From a virus (Duplodnaviria; Heunggongvirae; Uroviricota; Caudoviricetes), in the IMG/VR virus record IMGVR_UViG_2522572164_000008: a stretch of DNA of 27,592 nt; one strand, written 5' to 3'. The notes beneath the pieces were generated by a model that searched no databases, was not told the origin of the DNA, and saw only the letters and a program-made list of their open reading frames with translations. This document shows positions 10,158 to 27,592 of this stretch, piece after piece; within the stretch, counting starts at the first letter, position 1; each line of letters starts with the position of its first letter. The translations under genes were made by a program, and so were the position numbers.

Positions 10158-10835
10158 ATGGCAATGGGTCCGTTAACCATTGGTCGCCCGACTGAGGCGA
10201 AAATCAACAGCACAAGCAACGATAGCAACGGTAGAACAACCAAAGGGGGTAACGGCTTTGCGATCATTACCTCTAATCTCGGCAGTGGTGCAAATGCTGC
10301 TTACAATGACTACCAGGCATTATCATTTGATAGCGTGGAATCGACGAAAGTTAGCAGAAATGCGGACGTTACAAGCTATGCCGTCGAATCAGGATCAGAA
10401 GTTAGTGATCATGTTCAAATACGGAATAACAAGTTCACATTACAAGGGCGTATCTCTGAAACCGTATTGAAGCTCAATCCTGATATGATTAAGAATGCTG
10501 GAATTAACGGCAATCGACGTATGCTTATGCTTGAATACCTAAATCAGTTGATGGACAGTCGCCAACCTTTCCTACTTGTCACTGAGTTAAAAAATTATGA
10601 CAACGTTGTGTTAGTTGGCATGTCTTACGAAGAAGAAGCAAGCGAAAGCCTATTGTTTACTCTTGATTTTGAGCAAATCCGTCTTGTCTCTAAAGCAACT
10701 ACAAGCGCAATTGCGGTAAAAACAGCACCAAATAAATCTGTAGGAGGCCAGGTTAAAATGCAGGTAAATACAACAGAACAGAAAAATCAAAAAAGCCCAG
10801 GGCAAGACGTTGTAACGCCAGTATTTAAACAATAG
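10158..10835 (+). CDS. Hypothetical protein (225 aa)
   Basis: RBS TAAGGATTACAAATT-ATG; last gene of the same-strand array. Confidence 0.6.
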   Translation: MAMGPLTIGRPTEAKINSTSNDSNGRTTKGGNGFAIITSNLGSGANAAYNDYQALSFDSVESTKVSRNADVTSYAVESGSEVSDHVQIRNNKFTLQGRISETVLKLNPDMIKNAGINGNRRMLMLEYLNQLMDSRQPFLLVTELKNYDNVVLVGMSYEEEASESLLFTLDFEQIRLVSKATTSAIAVKTAPNKSVGGQVKMQVNTTEQKNQKSPGQDVVTPVFKQ

Positions 10836-11820: not shown

Positions 11821-13015
<1,195 letters not shown>

Positions 13016-13719: not shown

Positions 13720-14934
13720 GTGAAACTCAATGCCCGTCAAATAGACACTGCCAAGCCAAAAGAGAAGGCTTACAAGCTGGCTGATGGTGGTGGTCTGTAT
13801 CTCTTGGTAAAACCTAGTGGAGGAAAATATTGGCGCTTCAAGTATCGTGTAGCTGGTAAAGAGAAGCTGTTAGCACTAGGTGTGTATCCTGAAGTTACTT
13901 TGGCTGATGCTCGTGCAAAACGTGAAGAAGCTAAAAGGGGTATCGCTGGGGGTATCGATCCGATGGAAGCGAAACGAGAGGAAAAGATTGCCCGGGAAAC
14001 GCAGTTAAACAACACCTTCAAAGATATTGCCCTTGAGTGGCACAGCAGCAAATTAAAAAAATGGTCTGCTGGTTATGCTTCAGACATCCTCGAAGCCTTC
14101 AACAAAGATGTGTTCCCTTACATTGGCAAAAAACCAATCGCCGAAATCAAACCACTTGAACTGCTGAATGTGCTGCGGCGCATCGAGGGGCGCGGTGCTA
14201 CCGAAAAAGCCAAAAAAGTGAGGCAGCGATGCGGGGAAGTTTTCCGCTATGCAATTGTCACTGGACGTGCTGAGTATAACCCTGCACCGGATCTCACCAG
14301 CGCGATGCAAGGTCATGAATCTAATCATTATCCTTTCCTCACAGCCAAAGAATTACCTGATTTTTTCAAGGCATTGTCCAGTTACTCAGGAAGTGCATTG
14401 GTTGTTATGGCGGCTCGTCTACTGATTATCACCGGTTTGCGGACTGGCGAACTGCGCGGTGCATTATGGGATGAAATCGATCTCAACAAGGCTATCTGGG
14501 AGATACCTGCTTCACGGATGAAAATGCGTCGCCCTCATGTGGTGCCTTTGTCTAAGCAGGCTCTTTCGCTTATTGGGCAGATTAAAGAATTAACTGGCAA
14601 TTATCCGCTTATGTTTCCCGGCCGTAATGATCCAAGGAAAACAATGAGCGAGGCTAGCATAAACCAAGTATTTAAACGCATCGGCTATAACGGAAAGGTT
14701 ACTGGTCATGGATTCCGGCACACCATGAGCACCATTTTGCATGAGCAGGGCTATAACACCGCGTGGATAGAGACGCAGCTCGCACACGTCGATAAAAACT
14801 CAATTCGTGGCACATACAACCATGCGCAATATCTGGATGGACGGCGGGAAATGCTTCAGTGGTACGCCGATTATATGGATTCGCTCGAGCATGGCGGAAA
14901 TGTGGTGCATGGTGAGTTCGGAAAATGCGGGTGA
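13720..14934 (+). CDS. Tyrosine integrase, P4/CP4-57-like family (404 aa)
   Basis: GTG start with GGAGG 9 nt upstream; N-terminus ARQIDTAKPKEKAYKLADGGGLYLLVKPSGGKYWRFKYR typical of P4-type integrases; catalytic R...HGFRHT...Y region near the C-terminus. Confidence 0.9.
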   Translation: MKLNARQIDTAKPKEKAYKLADGGGLYLLVKPSGGKYWRFKYRVAGKEKLLALGVYPEVTLADARAKREEAKRGIAGGIDPMEAKREEKIARETQLNNTFKDIALEWHSSKLKKWSAGYASDILEAFNKDVFPYIGKKPIAEIKPLELLNVLRRIEGRGATEKAKKVRQRCGEVFRYAIVTGRAEYNPAPDLTSAMQGHESNHYPFLTAKELPDFFKALSSYSGSALVVMAARLLIITGLRTGELRGALWDEIDLNKAIWEIPASRMKMRRPHVVPLSKQALSLIGQIKELTGNYPLMFPGRNDPRKTMSEASINQVFKRIGYNGKVTGHGFRHTMSTILHEQGYNTAWIETQLAHVDKNSIRGTYNHAQYLDGRREMLQWYADYMDSLEHGGNVVHGEFGKCG

Positions 14935-15062
14935 CTGGTTGAGTATACAGTAGTAGACTTTGAGCGACGAAAGAAAAGGCTGTGTCTAGGGGCGCTCCCG
15001 AAAATCCGTACATCTCGACGGACTGGTACAGCCACTACAGTAGAGGACGCTGAGGTGTGCGT

Positions 15063-15860
15063 ATGATTGATATTCATGCCGAATTAAACGAATACAAAAA
15101 AGATTTTATTTCTTTACGTGAATTTCTTGAGGTCGTGCTTAAGGTCGCTGGTGATGATTATGATGTTTCAGATGTCATAACTTGGATACTCAGGAGAATA
15201 AGCGGAGAACATATCCGCCTGTACACAGTAAATGAATTTAAGCTGTTGGAATCTTTTTGTAACCCGTATCGGGATGAATTTGATTATGATGTTCTTTATA
15301 GAAATCTGAATGCGGTTCGGAAACGTGGTTGTTTACCTGGTGAGAGGGATGAAAATGGTTTTCTGGTGTCCGGTTATTGGGAAGATCCCGAATTTGAGAA
15401 CATTGGATTTATAAGGGGTGAAATTTTCGCAATTTTTCCCGATGTCCTTGACGCGTTAACGAAGCTGGAAGGCGCTAACTCTTCTGAAAATGACGAGGCA
15501 CAAGGACGCGATATTGAAAAGAAAGAGTTGCGTACAGAGGATGATTTATTATCCCAAATCGCAATGCTGGAAAAAGAAAACGCAGAGTTAAGGGCAAGGA
15601 TAGAGCAGTTAGAGCAAGAGCGCCCGATACACTTATATAAATACTGGGATAAAGACCCATTAGCTAAGGCTATTGAGATTAGAAACAGAGAGTGGGCCAA
15701 TTACGATCCAGAAAATGATTTTGCCACTAGGGGAAATCAAGAAGCGATAACCAGGGAGCTTAAGCAGTGGGGGGCAAGTAATGCTCTTGCAACGCTCATA
15801 GAGAGGACTGCCTGCCCTATTAACCGAGACAACAGCCAAAAGAACGCAAAGCCGGATTAA
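15063..15860 (+). CDS. Hypothetical protein with predicted coiled-coil segment (about 265 aa)
   Basis: ATG at 15063 with GAGGTG 6 nt upstream; coiled-coil-like EDDLLSQIAMLEKENAELRARIEQLEQE. Sits between int and alpA. Confidence 0.6.
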   Translation: MIDIHAELNEYKKDFISLREFLEVVLKVAGDDYDVSDVITWILRRISGEHIRLYTVNEFKLLESFCNPYRDEFDYDVLYRNLNAVRKRGCLPGERDENGFLVSGYWEDPEFENIGFIRGEIFAIFPDVLDALTKLEGANSSENDEAQGRDIEKKELRTEDDLLSQIAMLEKENAELRARIEQLEQERPIHLYKYWDKDPLAKAIEIRNREWANYDPENDFATRGNQEAITRELKQWGASNALATLIERTACPINRDNSQKNAKPD

Positions 15861-15875
15861 CGCACCATACCGCAT

Positions 15876-15985
15876 ACCCTGAGGGTGATTTACTGTTACC
15901 CTGAGGGTATTTTTTTATCTTCCCCGTCAATTTTACCATCACCCTTAGGGTTAATTTCCTTCCGGTAACCATTAGGCCTGAGGGT
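15876..15985. promoter_or_regulatory. Array of ACCCT-N-AGGGT palindromes upstream of alpA
   Basis: Perfect copies at 15876-15886 and 15898-15908, variant ACCCTTAGGGT at 15941-15951, partial at 15977-15985. Confidence 0.5.
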
Positions 15986-16054
15986 ATGAAAATATTCGTT
16001 ATTTCTGTGCCATGATTACCTCGTCAAATTGAGTAGACGTTATGAGGTAAATAT

Positions 16055-16252
16055 ATGTCAAATACGCTTATTCGTTTAACAGAAGTTCAGCGTAGAACTG
16101 GATATAGCAAGGCATGGATTTATCGCCTTATGGGGCAAGGTAAATTTCCTGCATCAGTTAAAATTGGCTCGCGAGCTATTGCTTTCGTTGAGAGTGAAAT
16201 TGACGAGTGGATTAATCAGCGTATTGCTGAATCACGCGGAACAGCTACCTGA
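16055..16252 (+). CDS. alpA: AlpA-family phage transcriptional regulator/excisionase-like HTH protein (65 aa)
   Basis: Sequence LIRLTEVQRRTGYSKAWIYRLMGQGKFPASVKIGSRAIAFVESEIDEWI matches the AlpA family pattern; RBS GAGGTAAATAT-ATG. Confidence 0.85.
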   Translation: MSNTLIRLTEVQRRTGYSKAWIYRLMGQGKFPASVKIGSRAIAFVESEIDEWINQRIAESRGTAT

Positions 16253-16330
16253 TTAAATGGCTACGGGGCCAGAAGCCCCCAGCTATCCACCAGCAAATAA
16301 AAGTAACTTAATTCGATAGCAGGAGTTTTT

Positions 16331-17131
16331 ATGAAACTGCGAAAAACGCCCGTACAGGGGCAGGGCTTCGTTCGGCCTGAAAACCAGAATCTGCAAAATT
16401 TCGGCGAAATTATCCCGGTTATTTCCGGCGTTATTGGCGGGCGTGAAACCAATATTGTTAGCGGCAGAGCGTTGCATAAGGCGTTAGGTGTAGGTCGCGT
16501 TTTCCGTTCGTGGATCAAGGGGCGCATTGAAGAATACGGCTTCACGGAAGGCGTGGATTATGAGGTTGTTGAATATTTGAGCCGACCCGATCCGGTGAGC
16601 GCAAAATCTCGCCAGCAAACAGCTCTTGAGTACATCATTACCGTGAACATGGCGAAAGAACTGGCGATGGTCGAACGCACCGAACAGGGGCGCGCCGTTC
16701 GTCAGTACTTCATCAAATGCGAGGAAGAGCTACACAAGGTTGCGCCTGTACGTTCCGCAGCGTTACGCCGGGAACTGAAAGCCCGTATCACAGTTGCCAG
16801 CTACTTTAAGCCAATGTGTGCCGCGCTGGAGGACTACCGGGCTGAACTGGGTAAAAACACTCTACAGCACCACTACACCACGGAAGCCAATATGCTGGCG
16901 CGTATCGTGCTGGGTGGCATGACTGCAAAACAGTGGGCGCAGGTGAACGGCATCACAGGCGAACCACGCGACCACATGAGCACGTTGCAGCTTGAGCACC
17001 TTTCTTACCTTGAGCAGAGCAATATCACGCTGATTGAGTTAGGCCAGGACTACCACCAGCGGAAGGCTGAATTAATTCGTCTTTCGCAGCGTTGGTTAGC
17101 CCGTCGCATGGAGGAAAACAGCCATGTGTAA
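16331..17131 (+). CDS. Phage antirepressor-like protein (266 aa)
   Basis: RBS AGGAG; N-terminal region resembles prophage antirepressor proteins as recalled. Family assignment tentative. Confidence 0.6.
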   Translation: MKLRKTPVQGQGFVRPENQNLQNFGEIIPVISGVIGGRETNIVSGRALHKALGVGRVFRSWIKGRIEEYGFTEGVDYEVVEYLSRPDPVSAKSRQQTALEYIITVNMAKELAMVERTEQGRAVRQYFIKCEEELHKVAPVRSAALRRELKARITVASYFKPMCAALEDYRAELGKNTLQHHYTTEANMLARIVLGGMTAKQWAQVNGITGEPRDHMSTLQLEHLSYLEQSNITLIELGQDYHQRKAELIRLSQRWLARRMEENSHV

Positions 17132-17590
17132 CGCTCTGACCGTTACAAAAAGAGAAAGCGCCCCGTTGCCGGAGCGCCTTTGTGAACGAATAGCCTACTG
17201 CGCCATATTGCTTACTGTCTACGAGGCAGATTATAGCGTTGTGGTCGCACAGAGTGAAGGCGCTGATCACCGTTACTACAGCACGCCAGAAATGCAGAAT
17301 ATTTTGCTGCAAAATGCCGTTGGCCACGCTGTCCGGAAAGCAAAAAATTTTGCTGGTGGCGCGACTGATGCGATTTTGTCAGGTCGCCAGGTGCTGATCA
17401 ATCTGATGTCTGATTTCGTTCTGGATAAAACAAAGGCGACCGCAGAGAGCCGCCAGTGGAAAAGCTACATACTTGAACGCATCACCAACAATGCCACATT
17501 TGCGGCTGGTGGGCAATGTGTCAGCTTTGCACCAATGACTCTAGGTTTAACTGAGGGTCATTATGGTGAATATGCTGGCTTGCTGGTGGG
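17124..17590 (+). other. Coding-like 5' part of a 1.57-kb stop-free frame; status unresolved, possibly a decayed or fused gene
   Basis: ATG at 17124 overlaps the upstream stop and has GGAGGA 9 nt upstream, but the frame has no stop until 18692 and runs antisense through a plausible minus-strand gene and a promoter region. The end coordinate is arbitrary. Confidence 0.3.
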
Positions 17591-19265: not shown

Positions 19266-19556
19266 ATGAAAAAGAAAAATTCTGGCTTTACTGCCAGCGG
19301 CCTCTCTCGGTCTGCAATTCGCTCTGGCGATATTTACCGCGACACCAGACGTGGGGGACGAGTGGTTATTCGTCACGTTACGCCAGGCAATATCACCTAC
19401 CGCCGTGAGGCTTACGAATATGACTGCGTAATGCCGCGCCGTCAGTTTGAGCGTGATTTTATTCTGGTGGAAAACAAACAATTGGCGGTGGCAAGACGTG
19501 CAGCCTCGAATATTAAAAAAATCCGGGCAATGTTGGTTGCGGGAGGTAAGAAGTGA
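19266..19556 (+). CDS. Hypothetical small basic protein (96 aa), possibly of a conserved island-associated family
   Basis: Motif GDIYRDTRRGGRVVIRHV...YEYDCVMPRRQFERDF resembles small proteins recalled from P4-integrase islands; stop overlaps the start of the next gene. Confidence 0.5.
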   Translation: MKKKNSGFTASGLSRSAIRSGDIYRDTRRGGRVVIRHVTPGNITYRREAYEYDCVMPRRQFERDFILVENKQLAVARRAASNIKKIRAMLVAGGKK

Positions 19557-21685
19557 AAAACGCACCGAATTTAAAATATCAGCCAAAGGATAAATTCACC
19601 GAGGTAATCATTTTTGCCGGGACGGATGCTTACGCCCATGCTCAACACTGGATTGAAAGCGAAGGACGAAAACACGGCGATAACGTGCCACCTGTTTACC
19701 TGGGGCCAACGCAACTGGCAGATCTGGCTAATATCCGCATTATCGACGATGAGCGCCGCTTTGCGCGTGTTTATATCGCGGGGGAGATAGAGCCAATCCA
19801 GATCAATGCTATCGCTGAAAAGCTGGCGCTGGCTGGCGTACAGGATGCGAAATTATACAAAGGCATCACCGACCGGGAGCCGGAGAACTGGCGCGACTAC
19901 CTGCAACGGATCCGCGAACAGGCAGAGCGCGGGGAAACCATTCCTGAAGGAATCGGAATAGCTGGTGGATCACCCGGTAAAACAGACCCCATGAAACCGC
20001 ATATTACCGAAAAAGACGGGGCGCTCTGGTATATCGAGCCAATCCCCAACACCAGGGCAGAGGAGATGAATTATAAAGAAACCTGGCTGAGTGACCGGAT
20101 GCGCACGGCAGGTATTGGTAACGACGGAAGGGAAGCGTATCTGATCATTGAAATGATCCCGGAAGGGACACAAAAAATTATTTACGAAGCGATGCCGCGC
20201 AATGAAATCGGTATGCCCGCAGGATGGGCGCGATTACGTGGGCGGGGAGTTGCAATCACTACCAGTGCCCATTTACTGAACAAACTGGCGGAATACCTGC
20301 AACGTCATGGAGATCGCACGGTGTGGGAGGTCACATCAACAGCAGGTTGGCATTGTGGAGCCTATGTTATGCCTGATGGCGAGGTGATTGGTGTGCCTGA
20401 CCGTCCCGTAGCATTCTGCGGCGGATCTGCCGCCATCAAAGGCTATATTGTCAGGGGCACGGTGCATGAATGGCGAAATAATGTTGCTTCTCTGATGCGT
20501 GGCAATCACTCAATGATGCTTGGGGTGCTGGTCGGGCTGGCAGCCCCGCTAAATTCCCTTGTGGGTGGTAGTTGTTTTGGTATTCATCTTTTCGCGCAGT
20601 CGTCAGCGGGGAAAACCACGACTGTGGAGGCCGCCACCAGCCTTTATGGCGACCCTGAAATGCTTAAACTCTCGTGGGATGCCACCCGGCACGGGCTGAC
20701 AGTGGAAGCAGCTGCACGTAATGACGGTTTTATCCCTATTGATGAAATTGGTCAGGGAGGAAGGGTTAATGACATTGCGCAATCCGCCTACAGCCTGTTT
20801 AACGGTGTGGGCAGGATTCAGGGGCGCAAGGACGGCGGTAATCGTGCGGTAATGCGCTGGAAAATAGCGGCACTAAGCACCGGAGAAGAAGATTTTGAAA
20901 CCTTCCTGTTAAAAGGGGGAATTGCCCCAAAGGCAGGGCAACTGGTGCGACTGCTAAGCATTCCCTTTACCGATACAACGGTGTTTAACGGTTATGACGA
21001 TGGTGATCAACATGCCAGGGCCATAAAGCGACTTTCATCAAATTATTGTGGCGCTGCGGGACGTGAGTGGGTGCGCTGGTTATCCGCTCACAAGGAGCTG
21101 GCTATCAACACCACTTCAGATAAAGAAAATGCCTGGCTGGGAAATCTGCCTGAAAATGCCTCGTCACAGGTAAGGCGAGTGGCATCGCGATTCGCCATGC
21201 TGGATGCAGCCGGAGAGCTTGCCACCGCAATTACTGGCTGGACAGCTGAAGAATGCCGGGAAGCAACGCAACGGGCTTTTGATGACTGGCTACAGGATTT
21301 CGGGCTGGAAAACCGGGAAAAATATCAGGTCATCAGTCGCGCCCGTGACTTTATTCAGCGCCATGCCCTGAGTCGTTTTCAGCCTTATACCTACGGGAAA
21401 AGCAATGGGGATATGGATAACCACTATGCATCCCGTATAAGCAATCTTGCAGGCTATCTTGTCAGCGGTAAGCGTGAGGATGGAAAACCCGAATATCACA
21501 TTATCCCGTCAGTGTTTGATAGCGAAATTTTATGCGGTATATCCAGGAACTTTGGGTGTCAGGCGCTGGAAGAAGCCGGAATGCTGGTTTGTGCAGAACC
21601 TGGTCGCTGGACATCGAAAACAGTGAAGATTAACGGAACACAGCAGCGATTTATCGTGCTGATTGATCAGGCAGAAGACGAATAG
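19553..21685 (+). CDS. Replication protein, primase/helicase-like P-loop NTPase (710 aa)
   Basis: GTG start with GGAGGT upstream; Walker A GxxxxGKT (FAQSSAGKTTTVE); large N-terminal domain; followed directly by an iteron array. Confidence 0.75.
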   Translation: MKNAPNLKYQPKDKFTEVIIFAGTDAYAHAQHWIESEGRKHGDNVPPVYLGPTQLADLANIRIIDDERRFARVYIAGEIEPIQINAIAEKLALAGVQDAKLYKGITDREPENWRDYLQRIREQAERGETIPEGIGIAGGSPGKTDPMKPHITEKDGALWYIEPIPNTRAEEMNYKETWLSDRMRTAGIGNDGREAYLIIEMIPEGTQKIIYEAMPRNEIGMPAGWARLRGRGVAITTSAHLLNKLAEYLQRHGDRTVWEVTSTAGWHCGAYVMPDGEVIGVPDRPVAFCGGSAAIKGYIVRGTVHEWRNNVASLMRGNHSMMLGVLVGLAAPLNSLVGGSCFGIHLFAQSSAGKTTTVEAATSLYGDPEMLKLSWDATRHGLTVEAAARNDGFIPIDEIGQGGRVNDIAQSAYSLFNGVGRIQGRKDGGNRAVMRWKIAALSTGEEDFETFLLKGGIAPKAGQLVRLLSIPFTDTTVFNGYDDGDQHARAIKRLSSNYCGAAGREWVRWLSAHKELAINTTSDKENAWLGNLPENASSQVRRVASRFAMLDAAGELATAITGWTAEECREATQRAFDDWLQDFGLENREKYQVISRARDFIQRHALSRFQPYTYGKSNGDMDNHYASRISNLAGYLVSGKREDGKPEYHIIPSVFDSEILCGISRNFGCQALEEAGMLVCAEPGRWTSKTVKINGTQQRFIVLIDQAEDE

Positions 21686-21717
21686 CACAACCTACGCTCG
21701 CAGAGGGTCAAAAATCG

Positions 21718-21990
21718 CGGGATATGCGGGATATCGGGATATGGAAATATATTGCATAAATATCAGTTATTTATGTGTTGTTGTCGTATCCCGCTGTATC
21801 CCGCCGTATCCCGGTATTTAGGTTTACGAGTGGTTGTAAAACAAACAAAATAACCGTATCCCGGAATGTATCCCGCAATATCTTATTGATGCATAAGCAA
21901 AAAAAAACTTACCGGGATATGGCGGGATATGAAAAATCACATAACGCTATGAAATAAATGGGTTTTTTTTGTTTATATCCCGATATCCCG
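21718..21990. repeat. Iteron array: 12 copies of the octamer CGGGATAT (or its complement) in alternating blocks, with A/T runs; candidate replication origin
   Basis: Forward copies at 21718, 21727, 21735, 21913, 21923; reverse copies at 21787, 21797, 21807, 21857, 21868, 21975, 21983; A- and T-runs at 21899-21907, 21963-21970 and 22005-22013. Confidence 0.7.
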
Positions 21991-22143
21991 GTAAAAAATG
22001 TTTTTTTACGCCTTATAGAGTACAGAAAAAAAGGTTGTTCAAATTTTGTATTACGATTGACTACTGTCAGCCATCCCACCCGGAAAAGGCATAAAAGCTG
22101 ACAGGTAACTGACAATGAGACTGTTTTATTTTTACGTGCCGAT

Positions 22144-23119: not shown

Positions 23120-23923
23120 ATGAATAAAACTTTAATTGCAACATTAGTCGGTATAGTAATGTTAACCGGATGTGGGCCAGAAGAGTTAACTCCAGAACAG
23201 AAACAGGAAGTAGCTGCTCTTAAAGCTGAACTGTCGCAAACGGAAGGTGAAATATCAGCAGCTAAGGAAGTTGACCAGCAGTTTTCTGGTGGGTTGATAA
23301 AAAATCTGACAACAGCAAGACTGGAAATATTAGGAACTAATAAAGCGCTTTTGGAACAGCGTATTAATGCTATTGAATCAGGTGCCAAAATTGATGTTGT
23401 TGTATCTGGAGTAAAACCTGATCCTGAGCTTGCGGCTTCAATTAAAACTGAAATTGACAGCTTAGATGCAAAAATCAACGAAGCCAAAGCTGATGCTCGT
23501 CAGTATAGTGGTGGTCTGATAAAGGTACTAAAATTATCTACTGTTGCCACTGAAGAGCAGACCATGGCAATGTTGCAGCAAAAGTACCTCACAGCCAAGT
23601 ATGGCCTCGCTGAAGTTAAGCTGGCATCAGTACAAGCTAATGACGCAAAAAACAGTACTGAAACGGAAGTAACAGCCAAAAATTCCCAAGAGCAACTTCC
23701 TTTACTCCCGCCAGCGGATGGTCCGTTTGGCTTAGAAGCCGGTCTTACACAGAAAAACATCGAAGATATGATCGGTGCTAAGCTCAAGCCACTACCAGAC
23801 AGTGTGAATCTGTATACTTCTGATAAATTACCGAAGCAAAACGCAGATTTTGAAATGTATGGTTTGCTGATCTCCCCGAAAGCTGGTTTATGTCAAATAC
23901 GGGCTTTAGGAAAAAAATATTGA
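23120..23923 (+). CDS. Lipoprotein (267 aa) with internal sequence repeats
   Basis: Signal peptide plus lipobox (MLTGC); internal repeat QQFSGGLIKNL / RQYSGGLIKVL; AT-rich relative to neighbours; RBS AGGGAT. Confidence 0.7.
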   Translation: MNKTLIATLVGIVMLTGCGPEELTPEQKQEVAALKAELSQTEGEISAAKEVDQQFSGGLIKNLTTARLEILGTNKALLEQRINAIESGAKIDVVVSGVKPDPELAASIKTEIDSLDAKINEAKADARQYSGGLIKVLKLSTVATEEQTMAMLQQKYLTAKYGLAEVKLASVQANDAKNSTETEVTAKNSQEQLPLLPPADGPFGLEAGLTQKNIEDMIGAKLKPLPDSVNLYTSDKLPKQNADFEMYGLLISPKAGLCQIRALGKKY

Positions 23924-23939
23924 TACTGATAGCTATGGA

Positions 23940-24263
23940 TTGGCTCTTAAATCCAAGTTTGAAGAATTGAGTAATTCTTTAAGTTCTCTGTATGGAAAGG
24001 CTGATACTACAGACTTTTTGCTGGCTGGTTCAATTTGGAAAGATCCTCAGGACTGGATGAGGGGGCTAAACAAAAAAGAACGCTTCTTATCTGCCACATG
24101 GAAGGGAACAAAAGAAATACCATTAAAAAACAATATTGATACTATATCTATTGAGGCCAGAGCGAACAATTCCACTCAGGGATATGTCTATCTGCAGTAC
24201 TCATTTACAAATGACGAAATTTGTCAGGCAGAAATTGAAGGGGCGAAAAAAAGTTCCCTTTAA
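23940..24263 (+). CDS. Hypothetical protein (about 107 aa, start uncertain)
   Basis: Open frame right after the lipoprotein gene; the first codon in the track is a non-ATG start; followed by a clear terminator. Confidence 0.35.
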   Translation: MALKSKFEELSNSLSSLYGKADTTDFLLAGSIWKDPQDWMRGLNKKERFLSATWKGTKEIPLKNNIDTISIEARANNSTQGYVYLQYSFTNDEICQAEIEGAKKSSL

Positions 24264-24840: not shown

Positions 24841-24933
24841 ATGCTTTTCGTTTCATTTGTTGCAATTGTCTCTGGTATCATTTCAATTTGTGCAATAATT
24901 GCAATTATTGTCATTCAGAAGGGATCATCATGA
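24841..24933 (+). CDS. Possible 30-aa single-pass hydrophobic peptide (alternative 55-aa form from ATG 24766)
   Basis: MLFVSFVAIVSGIISICAIIAIIVIQKGSS; stop overlaps the next ATG (ATGA). RBS spacing is suboptimal. Confidence 0.3.
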   Translation: MLFVSFVAIVSGIISICAIIAIIVIQKGSS

Positions 24934-25097
24934 AAAATCACGGAGTAAAGCCAGTTTTACTTTCCCGGAGGCAGATCGAAGCCCTGCAACGCATCCAGGA
25001 CGAAGAGCGTCAGAAATCTGTGCTTGGTGTGGCACCGTCGATTCATGTTATCGCTCGGCAACTGATGGATAAGGCACTTAAAGAGGTGAGACTGTGA
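24930..25097 (+). CDS. Hypothetical small protein (55 aa)
   Basis: ATG with AGAAGGGA upstream; overlaps both neighbours through ATGA and GTGA junctions. Confidence 0.4.
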   Translation: MKNHGVKPVLLSRRQIEALQRIQDEERQKSVLGVAPSIHVIARQLMDKALKEVRL

Positions 25098-25465: not shown

Positions 25466-25993
25466 ATGTTGATGAGTAAAGCCGAATACGCCAAATACAA
25501 AGGCGTAAGCCGCCAGACAGTTTACGACTGGCTCGAGAAAGGCGAAGTGGTCATGTCCGGTAAAAAAATTGATGTGGAAGCGACAGAGCAGCGGAACAGC
25601 CCACCAGCACAGGGGAAAGACACCATTTCTGAAATGTGGCCAGAAAGAACGCTGGAAATGACATGGGGCGAGTTCTGGAAAGCAGTTAAGGCCAGAGACG
25701 GTAAAATTCCTGCGCCAGTAACGGACGAGGGCATACAGCAGCGTGTGCTGTATGCAGCCGGGGAATTAGGCTGGGAAGTGCACTTTCTTGATGATGGTGC
25801 TATCTGCCTTGAGGATGATGAAGGGCAGCATTACTTTGAAAAATACAATTTGCGAGGTAATGCCAGGCTGGCAATTCGTATGCTGCGTTGCGAACTCTGC
25901 TATGTTGCAGGTGATTATCCCGATGAACCGGAATCATGGAGTGAAGCCGGGTTAAACGCCCTGGCTGAGTGGGAAAAATCAGACCATCAATGA
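25466..25993 (+). CDS. HTH DNA-binding protein (about 175 aa), terminase-small-subunit-like or regulator-like
   Basis: N-terminal HTH SKAEYAKYKGVSRQTVYDWLEKGEV; GAGGTGA upstream; its stop is followed immediately by an array of direct repeats. Functional call speculative. Confidence 0.55.
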   Translation: MLMSKAEYAKYKGVSRQTVYDWLEKGEVVMSGKKIDVEATEQRNSPPAQGKDTISEMWPERTLEMTWGEFWKAVKARDGKIPAPVTDEGIQQRVLYAAGELGWEVHFLDDGAICLEDDEGQHYFEKYNLRGNARLAIRMLRCELCYVAGDYPDEPESWSEAGLNALAEWEKSDHQ

Positions 25994-25997
25994 CATC

Positions 25998-26221
25998 AAA
26001 AAGTGTCAAGTTGAGCAGCTTGCCGGGTTGACACTTTACACTCTGAACACGAAAAAGTGTCAACCTCGCTGTAAGCCCCGCCGTTACTGGCCTTGCGCCA
26101 GATTTACCACGTCAAAAAGCCGAAAAAATCGCGAAAAGTGTCAAGTTGCCATGCTTAGAAATGCCAGGGGAGGTTAAGTTTTGTTAAGGTTTTTCCCGAA
26201 AAAGTGTCAAGTGTGTCAACC
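25998..26221. repeat. Array of six copies of GAAAAAGTGTCAA(G/C)-type repeats (one inverted)
   Basis: Copies at 25998-26010, 26028-26039 (inverted), 26053-26066, 26133-26145, 26198-26211 and 26211-26221. Confidence 0.6.
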
Positions 26222-26596
26222 CGCGATATACAGATTTATTAAGGTTTTGAGCCAGAAAGAGTTAACCGCGCCGCTTTAGAAAACTTCAGGCACGCATTTG
26301 TGAAAGCATCAAATGAAGTTCTGTCATACTTTGCAAATCATGCAGATGCATCGTTACTGAGCATTTTAAGTTACAGTTGATGCGGACTGTCCACTTTAAC
26401 CTTTCAAAACGTTTCGTAGTAGGTACTAACTAGAATGCCAAGAGTCTTTCAGGTTCCGTGATGTTTAGCGTTGGATTTGATATTAAGTGTTTAAATTCAA
26501 TGTGTTACATTGTATTATAAAGTTTATTGCTAACAACTGTAGGGTAGATGCCAAGCGCACGCTAAGCATGTTATAATCATTTCAACTTTCATAATA

Positions 26597-27592
26597 ATGG
26601 ATACGAGAGTGGCGACGATAATCAAAAATATAGCAATCAAAGGTCTTTTTAAACGGAAGGACATTGATTGGAGTTTAAAAGATGTGAATGTTTTAGTGGG
26701 TAAAAATGGCTCAGGTAAGAGCACGATAATTCAAAGTGTTTTTGCCCTCTTAAAACAAGAATTAAATGAAAGTTTAAGTAATGCTGCGTTGGCTCAAATA
26801 ACATTGGCCAATGGAGGCACAATTACTCACAAAGTTAATTTTCGCGAAATTGACTCTGTCCAGCTTCTAAACCTACTTAATAACCTTAAGAAAAACAGTA
26901 TTAAAGGTAAATCAAAGGGTAAGGAAATAAAGGAGTTAAATGAACTTATTGAGTTGCTTGAATCGAAAAAAGAAGACACTGAAATTAAAGAGTTCGGGAT
27001 GGGAACTGTTAGCGTAAGTGATAATATTAAAAACACTAAGCGAATAAATGTTGAGTTAATATCAACTATCAATATGAGTGCCAATTCCATCTATGAATTC
27101 AAAAAAAGTGATGGTGAGCGCACCACAATTCTTGATATGGAAATTGCTGGTGAATTAGAAAGGTTAAAGAATACTTTCAAAGTAAGTGAGTCTAAAGGTA
27201 TTCTCATAAAGGATAAGTTGGAATCAGCTATAAATAATTTATTTTCTGAATGTAACAAAGTTGTTTCTTTTAGTAATGGTAACATTTCTATTAAGATGAG
27301 TGATTCTGGTGAAGATATTAGGTATAATCTTCTTTCATCAGGTGAACGTCAGTTGTTATATATTCTGATTAAAACAGCTAATACTTCATTGGATGAATCT
27401 GTCTTGTTGATGGATGAGCCAGAAATATCCTTGCACCTTACGTGGCAAGAAAGATTAATAAGCACCATCAAATCAATTAACGATAATTGTCAGTTAATTA
27501 TTGTTACTCATAGTCCTGCAATATTAATGAAAGGCTGGATGGATTCTTTCGTAGATATAAAAAATATTTCAAAGGAATCTTCTCATGACTGA
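26597..27592 (+). CDS. ABC-type/SMC-like ATPase (331 aa), defence-associated type
   Basis: Walker A GKNGSGKST, ABC signature LSSGERQ, Walker B LLMDEPE, H-loop IVTHSP; very AT-rich versus island backbone; TATAAT at 26573-26578 upstream. Confidence 0.85.
   Translation: MDTRVATIIKNIAIKGLFKRKDIDWSLKDVNVLVGKNGSGKSTIIQSVFALLKQELNESLSNAALAQITLANGGTITHKVNFREIDSVQLLNLLNNLKKNSIKGKSKGKEIKELNELIELLESKKEDTEIKEFGMGTVSVSDNIKNTKRINVELISTINMSANSIYEFKKSDGERTTILDMEIAGELERLKNTFKVSESKGILIKDKLESAINNLFSECNKVVSFSNGNISIKMSDSGEDIRYNLLSSGERQLLYILIKTANTSLDESVLLMDEPEISLHLTWQERLISTIKSINDNCQLIIVTHSPAILMKGWMDSFVDIKNISKESSHD
27585..27592 (+). CDS. Start of a translationally coupled downstream gene (truncated by the window end)
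   Basis: ATG at 27585 overlaps the ATPase stop (ATGACTGA) with AAGGAA 8 nt upstream; only 2.7 codons visible. Confidence 0.3.

Follow-up and report, generated by a model that had tools for sequence, protein, structure and literature searches.

Gram-negative PICIs carry a cos site and the specificity protein Rpp at an end of the element equivalent to that considered here (PMC6739421, PMC9026076, PMC10111431). In the EcCICFT073-type islands, Rpp, a protein of 135-153 aa with a helical dimerisation region, is paired with a PICI-specific cosB, for which a single R3-like site was proposed; cos lies upstream of rpp, and lambda-type cosQ-cosN adjoins (PMC6739421, PMC9026076). In the SaPIs, the accessory genes are located downstream of pac, between pac and the SaPI end, which has been tied to lateral transduction (PMC12829572), and in the PLEs of Vibrio cholerae, the satellite factors GpsA and GpsB steer the packaging motor of the helper to satellite DNA (PMC11417361). 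Many enterobacterial PICI-like islands encode an integrase, AlpA, and a primase but no recognizable terS, rpp, or cos; they are scored as incomplete or as having unknown packaging, and PICIs with such gene content have been described as having no identifiable packaging module (PMC11773190).

In this study we analyzed an island of this class and found in it a module that is real, conserved among enterobacterial PICI-type satellites, and not described before; it consists of a gene encoding a winged helix-turn-helix (HTH) protein and an array of short sites directly downstream. We class it as a DNA-recognition module of satellites with Rpp/cosB or TerS/pac as analogs, its protein being a member of neither the Rpp nor the TerS family. 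The protein has no detectable sequence homology to Rpp, and neither its sequence nor its structure is homologous to RppA/B/C over the full length; unlike Rpp it comprises 175 aa and ends in an orphan alpha/beta domain. Instead of a single site and an upstream cos, this locus has five to nine sites downstream of the gene, and it has neither cosQ nor cosN, the helper of this satellite being probably not lambda-like. The N-terminal winged HTH is shared with the gpNu1-type TerS of lambda, which acts on the R-sites of cosB, whereas the oligomerisation and TerL-binding region of TerS is not recognizable in our protein and no terL is found beside its gene. Pac sites composed of repeated elements, such as P1 pac and SPP1 pacL/pacR, form another parallel, but the bipartite layout of the array is not conserved across genera. 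With the PLEs only the concept is shared, since proteins, host, and helper are unrelated, and the PLE mimics the pac site of its helper, whereas our array is absent from the candidate helpers.

The window, that is, the whole analyzed stretch of 27,592 nucleotides, corresponds to the chromosome of E. coli O104:H4 FDAARGOS_349 (100% identity over the 901 bases queried and 99.98% over 14.6 kb). Judged by its gene content, the host element is a PICI-type phage satellite. Measured from int to where the cargo ends, it is about 15 kb long, and its components listed below, up to the array, are co-oriented.

13720-14934: tyrosine integrase gene
14979-15046, plus strand: int-alpA RNA (Rfam RF02996, 44 bits, above the gathering score), directly 3' of the integrase gene
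Also in the island, according to the PGAP context: small HTH regulator and AntA-type protein
19553-21685: DUF927 primase-helicase gene
21700-22000: probable replication origin, which adjoins the 3' end of the primase gene and has A/T runs surrounded by more than 10 GCGGGATAT iterons in both orientations
Further downstream: ProQ/FinO and PerC genes, a few small genes, then the HTH gene with its array
26597-27592, plus strand: gene for the PARIS AriA ATPase, the start of the variable cargo, outside the module (PADLOC AriA, E 4e-43; Pfam AAA_21 and AAA_15)

The HTH gene and the array form the 3' end of the late zone and are the last conserved module, located just before the swapped-in PARIS cassette. 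The second gene of the cassette, AriB (DUF4435), lies just past the window (PADLOC E 3.6e-22); the pair occupies 15210-17166 of locus L001 and is annotated by PGAP as an AAA ATPase and a DUF4435 protein. The presence of both AriA and AriB identifies the AT-rich cargo as a PARIS defense system. The GC content falls behind the array, and the PARIS pair is followed by the chromosomal pao genes. In related islands the same slot contains a Panacea-domain pair, membrane proteins, and other genes, PARIS thus being one of many interchangeable cargos. A dedicated regulator of the ATPase operon, proposed in an earlier sequence-only reading of this DNA, was rejected, as the operon is this interchangeable PARIS cassette and has a promoter-like site of its own at 26548-26577. 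In 47 loci the array is followed by a small conserved gene, c0 (phrog_1561/7271), which is absent from the window and has no match in the phage collection. No terL was found in the island and no terS in the window.

The HTH gene (25466-25993, plus strand; start ATG 25466, stop TGA 25991-25993) encodes a protein of 175 aa beginning with MLMSKAEY. A GAGGTGA Shine-Dalgarno sequence is situated 6 nt 5' of the ATG, and the same start is used by PGAP. The array that follows covers 270 bp and is composed of AAAGTGTCAA(C/G)(C/T) sites. Five of these are exact 10-mers, four of them direct and one inverted; two more consist of the heptamer only, and one is decayed. The exact 10-mer core AAAGTGTCAA occurs at 26000(+), 26028(-), 26054(+), 26135(+), and 26201(+), that is, five times within 211 bp, and has no exact copy outside the array in the 27.6-kb window, the chance expectation for a given 10-mer on both strands of the window being about 0.05 copies. 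The five direct and one inverted copies seen over 25997-26221 in the sequence-only reading were recovered, with the correction that the first 13-mer begins 4 nt, not 5 bp, after the stop codon. The 13-mer itself, GAAAAAGTGTCAA, is exact only at 26051 and 26198 and has one or two mismatches at 25997 and 26132, and the sixth copy of that reading is the 9-mer GTGTCAACC at 26213-26221. The module is organized as follows.

25466-25993, plus strand: gene for the winged-HTH/orphan protein, with the winged HTH at about residues 1-45 (25466-25600), a disordered linker, and a C-terminal alpha/beta domain at about residues 58-172 (25637-25981)
26000-26011, plus strand: site 1, AAAGTGTCAAGT, preceded by an A-tract and invariant in 13 aligned relatives
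26026-26041, minus strand: sites 2 and 2b, GGTTGACACTTT and the overlapping heptamer TTTACAC (26035-26041) at a 7-bp offset, invariant but for one substitution in one locus
26054-26065, plus strand: site 3, AAAGTGTCAACC, the full consensus
26066-26134, no strand: central spacer of 69 bp, site-free and relatively GC-rich, with a CTGGC-N5-GCCAG palindrome, parting two site clusters
26135-26146, plus strand: site 4, AAAGTGTCAAGT
26153-26203, plus strand: second conserved motif, consisting of a degenerate TAAG dyad (26153-26169), TAAGTTTTGTTAAGG (26175-26189), and a T5-CCCG-A5 palindrome (26190-26203)
26201-26221, plus strand: sites 5 and 6 in tandem, AAAGTGTCAAGT and then GTGTCAACC, at a 9-bp offset
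26230-26267, plus strand: decayed last unit, ACAGATTTATTAAGG (TAAG dyad) and AAAGAGTTAACC (site 7, 26256-26267, two mismatches)

The second motif, TAAGnnnnnnTAAGG followed by a T5-N4-A5 palindrome, recurs between the sites (26153-26203 and 26230-26244). It is present in the E. coli relatives, and a recognizable form persists in loci with 37-44% protein identity from Enterobacter (GCTAAGAAATGCTAAGGTTTTTTGCGCAAAAA) and Serratia. At the position of the decayed last unit, the relatives have the intact arrangement TAAGATTTATTAAGG...AAAGTGTCAACC. The central spacer is moderately conserved in close relatives and not conserved in Pantoea or Klebsiella; we infer that it could be a cleavage region, and no cleavage-site-like element conserved across genera was found in the array. 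An RNA element was ruled out, as the array has no Rfam match and an RNA fold z-score of -0.8, which is no better than that of shuffled sequence.

The pairing of the gene and the array is maintained in all relatives considered. Homologs of the protein are encoded in 92 related loci from six or more genera (38-100% protein identity), and the motif clusters only in the 400 bp after the gene. In the 80-92 homolog-encoding loci, about 423 of about 530 GTGT[CA]AA matches fall within 400 bp 3' of the stop codon, with a background of about 0.04 per 400 bp, and no second cluster was observed within 10 kb on either side of the gene in 80 IMG/VR loci. In all divergent loci that were read, which were from Pantoea (62% identity), Klebsiella (55%), Serratia (44%), and Enterobacter (37%), arrays of AAGTGT(C/A)AAC in both orientations extend from the stop codon on. 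The consensus derived from 73 distinct arrays is AAAGTGT[C/A]AA[C/G][C/T]. In 13 aligned arrays of the E. coli type the cores are invariant, the spacers drift, and units of about 55 bp are gained or lost whole. On the protein side, residues 1-42, including the recognition helix SRQTVYDW, are nearly invariant across the family, and the remainder diverges. A cognate pair would be expected to leave this trace, a near-invariant recognition domain matched by an invariant motif.

The homologs are limited to the Enterobacterales, and nearly all of them are annotated without a functional name, a few being labeled as an HTH-domain protein, a DNA-binding protein, or a repressor. Apart from E. coli, where the gene and the array are present in 166 of 5426 complete genomes (about 3%), the module was found in Klebsiella, Enterobacter, Serratia, Pantoea, and other genera. 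It is accompanied by unrelated integrases, of a 404-aa arm-binding type in the window and of a 292-aa type in Klebsiella and Serratia, and by unrelated replicases, of the DUF927 or the D5/Pox_D5 types. The homology between islands ends at 26224 or 26267, that is, at the end of the array, the megablast matches stopping at query position 825 or 868. The ends of several contigs at or within the array were not counted as evidence, as assemblies can be broken there by repeats and by multi-copy islands. A search for circular or terminally redundant satellite contigs, which could be used for mapping DNA ends, yielded none. The array and its conservation, the exclusive association with this gene, the DNA-binding fold class, the position in the island, and the independence of the integrase and replicase type are established observations.

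AlphaFold2, run on the family alignment, gave a confident model (mean pLDDT 88), in which a disordered linker joins the N-terminal winged HTH to a C-terminal domain that is compact and of alpha/beta type. The likeness of the N-terminus to small-terminase or excisionase-type domains, suggested by the sequence-only reading, holds: PHROG 57 (terminase small subunit) matches residues 5-48 with E 2e-6, Pfam HTH_17 and the excisionase family TIGR01764 match below their curated cut-offs, and the first 32 residues are 34% identical to lambda Nu1. The best structural match of the winged HTH is mycobacteriophage Xis (6.9), followed by the DNA-binding domain of a small terminase (7lxs, 6.4), lambda TerS (6.1), BldC (5.9), P2 Cox (5.8), RdfS (5.5), and RppC (5.4). 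The N-terminus is thus a winged HTH of the Xis/lambda-TerS/Rpp/BldC/Cox class. The C-terminal domain is an orphan: it has no convincing relative in PDB or BFVD, including no TerS match, and a set of 1.84 billion representative proteins yields only about 20 clusters that contain it.

Cooperative loading on arrays of short repeats is characteristic of the fold class that comprises Xis, Cox, BldC, and gpNu1. The repeats are present in every divergent relative examined, and the suggestion that the DNA-binding protein lies beside an array of its own sites gained ground, as the pairing is kept down to 37-38% identity and the domain class binds repeat arrays. The 175-aa protein probably binds the array.

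The structural match to Xis, together with those to RdfS and AlpA-type excisionases and the weak TIGR01764 match, raises the question of a recombination function. The protein could be an excisionase, a recombination directionality factor, or an oriT accessory protein, and the array a set of arm-type or accessory sites that might promote cargo exchange; indeed, the array is the exact breakpoint between the conserved island and the variable cargo. We consider this highly improbable. Xis, Cox, and BldC, MerR-like winged-HTH proteins of 55-90 aa (55-80 aa for the excisionases), have a single domain, polymerise along direct repeats, and function at att sites or promoters, whereas our protein has two domains, the extra one being of 115 aa, and is uncoupled from the integrase type. 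Directionality factors normally co-vary with their integrase, but the module is common to islands with unrelated integrases. Further, the sites are not in an att arm: in relatives without cargo 250-500 bp separate the array from attR, and in the window it is more than 3.4 kb away from the island end. The island also has its own AlpA-type gene and int-alpA RNA beside the integrase gene, and neither a relaxase nor a nic-site consensus was seen by eye. An excision factor was rejected because of the size, the two domains, the distance from the island end, and the unrelated integrases.

Like this module, sopB-sopC and many iteron origins place a gene beside an array of sites. By this likeness, the array could be a second iteron origin, a cis-replication region, or a plasmid-type centromere, and the HTH protein an initiator or adaptor, as in P4 ori/crr or sopB-sopC. 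A scan of IMG/VR for inverted pairs of sites returned mostly unrelated AT-rich viral contigs with origin-like GTGTAAAC arrays that flank poly-A/T tracts beside HTH ORFs, which is in line with such a role, but these contigs have no protein similarity to the family from the window. A canonical iteron origin is already present 3' of the primase gene, and the array, with a GC content of 35-65%, contains no AT-rich unwinding element of the kind expected at an iteron origin, where DnaA or IHF sites are also frequent; motif searches detected no DnaA, IHF, or GATC motif in it. The co-occurrence with both DUF927 and D5/Pox_D5 replicases argues against a replication role as well, and no ParA-type ATPase that would be expected for a maintenance role is adjacent. 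Replication or maintenance functions are therefore quite improbable, and the array as the replication origin of the island was rejected because of the separate iteron origin, the missing origin features, and the independence of the replicase. The probability left over from the other readings is spread over maintenance or recombination roles. As to the AT-rich metagenomic contigs (L124, L209, L108, L143, L113, L094, L208, L180, L136, L168, and L128 from IMG/VR), they contain 9-13 GTGTAAAC/GTTTACAC repeats flanking poly-A/T tracts, and several of these arrays begin at the stop codon of an HTH ORF (ending in LLGVSRNMIYKYMKK) and look like iteron origins.

The main and serious rival to a packaging role is a local transcription regulator. 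The protein would act at the array to activate or repress transcription of the genes just downstream, c0 in most relatives and read-through into the cargo, or would form a roadblock or insulator between the late operon and the cargo, in the manner of BldC, Cox, PrtN, or AlpA. The DNA-binding class includes transcription factors (BldC, P2 Cox, AlpA, MerR, and PrtN), the other strand of the motif reads TTGACA or TTTACA and resembles a -35 element, and c0 is the gene behind the array in the 47 loci mentioned above. The c0 start codon of the E. coli relatives follows the last site at a distance of about 35-45 bp, with TAAGAT in between (4/6 of the -10 consensus, by eye). Yet five to nine sites across 130-300 bp exceed the need of a simple operator, and a consensus scan for promoters and terminators inside the array revealed nothing, including no sigma-70-like promoter. 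In Pantoea and Klebsiella the gap between the array and c0 is 90-130 bp and contains other sequence, and in some loci whole genes are inserted there. The window retains an intact array without c0, its cargo having a separate promoter-like site, and the variable C-terminal domain would be left unexplained. On balance, a local regulatory role appears rather unlikely. Even if the protein is only a regulator, the module would offer a clean and testable case of protein-DNA recognition that involves an orphan domain.

We tentatively suggest that the module is a satellite-specific packaging-recognition module, analogous but not homologous to Rpp/cosB. In this reading the ORF would encode a DNA-binding protein specific to the satellite, for which the array would serve as the cognate loading site. 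The N-terminal winged HTH would recognize GTGT(C/A)AA through the major groove, with the adjacent A-tract probably read by the wing, and several copies of the protein would load on the five to nine sites to form a nucleoprotein complex. The variable C-terminal domain could then link this complex to TerS and/or TerL of the helper, so that satellite concatemers would be chosen over helper DNA. Such a system would parallel Rpp/cosB of the lambda-dependent PICIs, in which Rpp forms a heterodimer with TerS of the helper and inhibits helper packaging, or pac with TerS, with a different protein, a different site, and non-lambda helpers. Rightward packaging from the array would explain why interchangeable defense cargo collects directly downstream. 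In this scheme we infer three elements, namely the binding to the array, the packaging role, and the contact with the terminase.

Several observations bear on the likely helpers. In the Klebsiella relatives a gene of the DUF5681 family (TerS-like) directly follows the array, and its phage homologs are located immediately upstream of terL. The Klebsiella and Serratia islands L006-L009, L052, L060, L062, L063, and L065 are helper-embedded satellites, inserted within late genes of a prophage whose head is Mu-like and whose tail is E217-like. The targets of the embedded islands include the major capsid gene and a position after a MuF-like gene, and in L063 the capsid gene is the site of a tandem of two elements, each with an integrase. 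In some E. coli relatives the HTH gene is directly preceded by a captured DUF2213 head gene. This gene shares 54% identity with its counterpart in Rac-SA53, a phage with the head-tail architecture of the Klebsiella host prophage. Two further candidate links were discarded. An origin of the DUF5681 island gene from the Klebsiella host prophage was rejected, as the prophage, whose 258-aa TerS is encoded at L212:3817-4593, does not encode that protein, and the embedding of the O104:H4 island in the same helper type was dropped, as the ORFs in the left part of the window have no sequence similarity to that prophage.

The packaging signal proposed in the sequence-only reading is plausible from the position of the array, the absence of cos and terS, the TerS-like gene in Klebsiella, and the cargo behind it. 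The further expectation that the motif would be found near the terminase genes of helper phages failed in the phage collection and in two candidate helper lineages: no match was obtained with either the protein (tblastn) or the array (blastn) in 50,697 phage genomes, and no array was detected in the Klebsiella host-prophage type (80 loci scanned, including the terS/terL/portal region) or in the head-terminase region of Rac-SA53. The absence from helpers fits a satellite-private site of the Rpp kind, though as negative, not positive, evidence. Known cos sites were not recognized either. Lambda cosN (GGGCGGCGACCT) has no match in the window with fewer than 2 mismatches, and the 8 matches at up to 3 mismatches are not above chance; in the 92 related loci (1.3 Mb), lambda cosN and P2 cos gave chance-level matches only.

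With somewhat more reserve than for the recognition module as such, we propose a packaging-specifier system in which a two-domain protein and a private pac-like array would redirect the terminase of a non-lambda helper, convergent with Rpp/cosB but independent of it. The likely helpers would be prophages of the Rac-SA53 kind, with a Mu-like head and an E217-like tail, and the direction of packaging could make the adjacent locus a hotspot for the capture and spread of defense systems such as PARIS. If the module is a packaging determinant, it would explain the mobilisation of this class of islands and the swapping of anti-phage systems such as PARIS exactly behind the module, and it would provide a sequence marker for the annotation of such satellites and a pointer to their helpers.

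Additional features were observed elsewhere in the window. At 11821-13010, it contains a 1.2-kb insertion relative to NZ_CP027394.1 with a 326-aa ORF (11889-12869), probably an IS, which splits a second, oppositely oriented integrase gene beside a gene for a Dit-like tail protein (10158-10835). A 380-aa lipoprotein-like gene that is a single CDS in FDAARGOS_349 (PGAP, L001 11722-12864) is listed in the window as two ORFs in different frames (23120-23923 and 23940-24263); a pair of indels in the 14.6-kb alignment fits a 1-nt frameshift that would lie near 23930. Finally, a ribbon-helix-helix-like protein of 55 aa (KPVLLSRRQIEALQRIQDEE...) is encoded at 24930-25097 on the plus strand; of 85 related loci, about 60 have this gene conserved on the upstream side of the HTH gene. 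Variable captured genes, including those for DUF2213 and a gpV-type spike, are situated between the two genes, and the 55-aa gene may mark the other edge of the dynamic late zone of these satellites.
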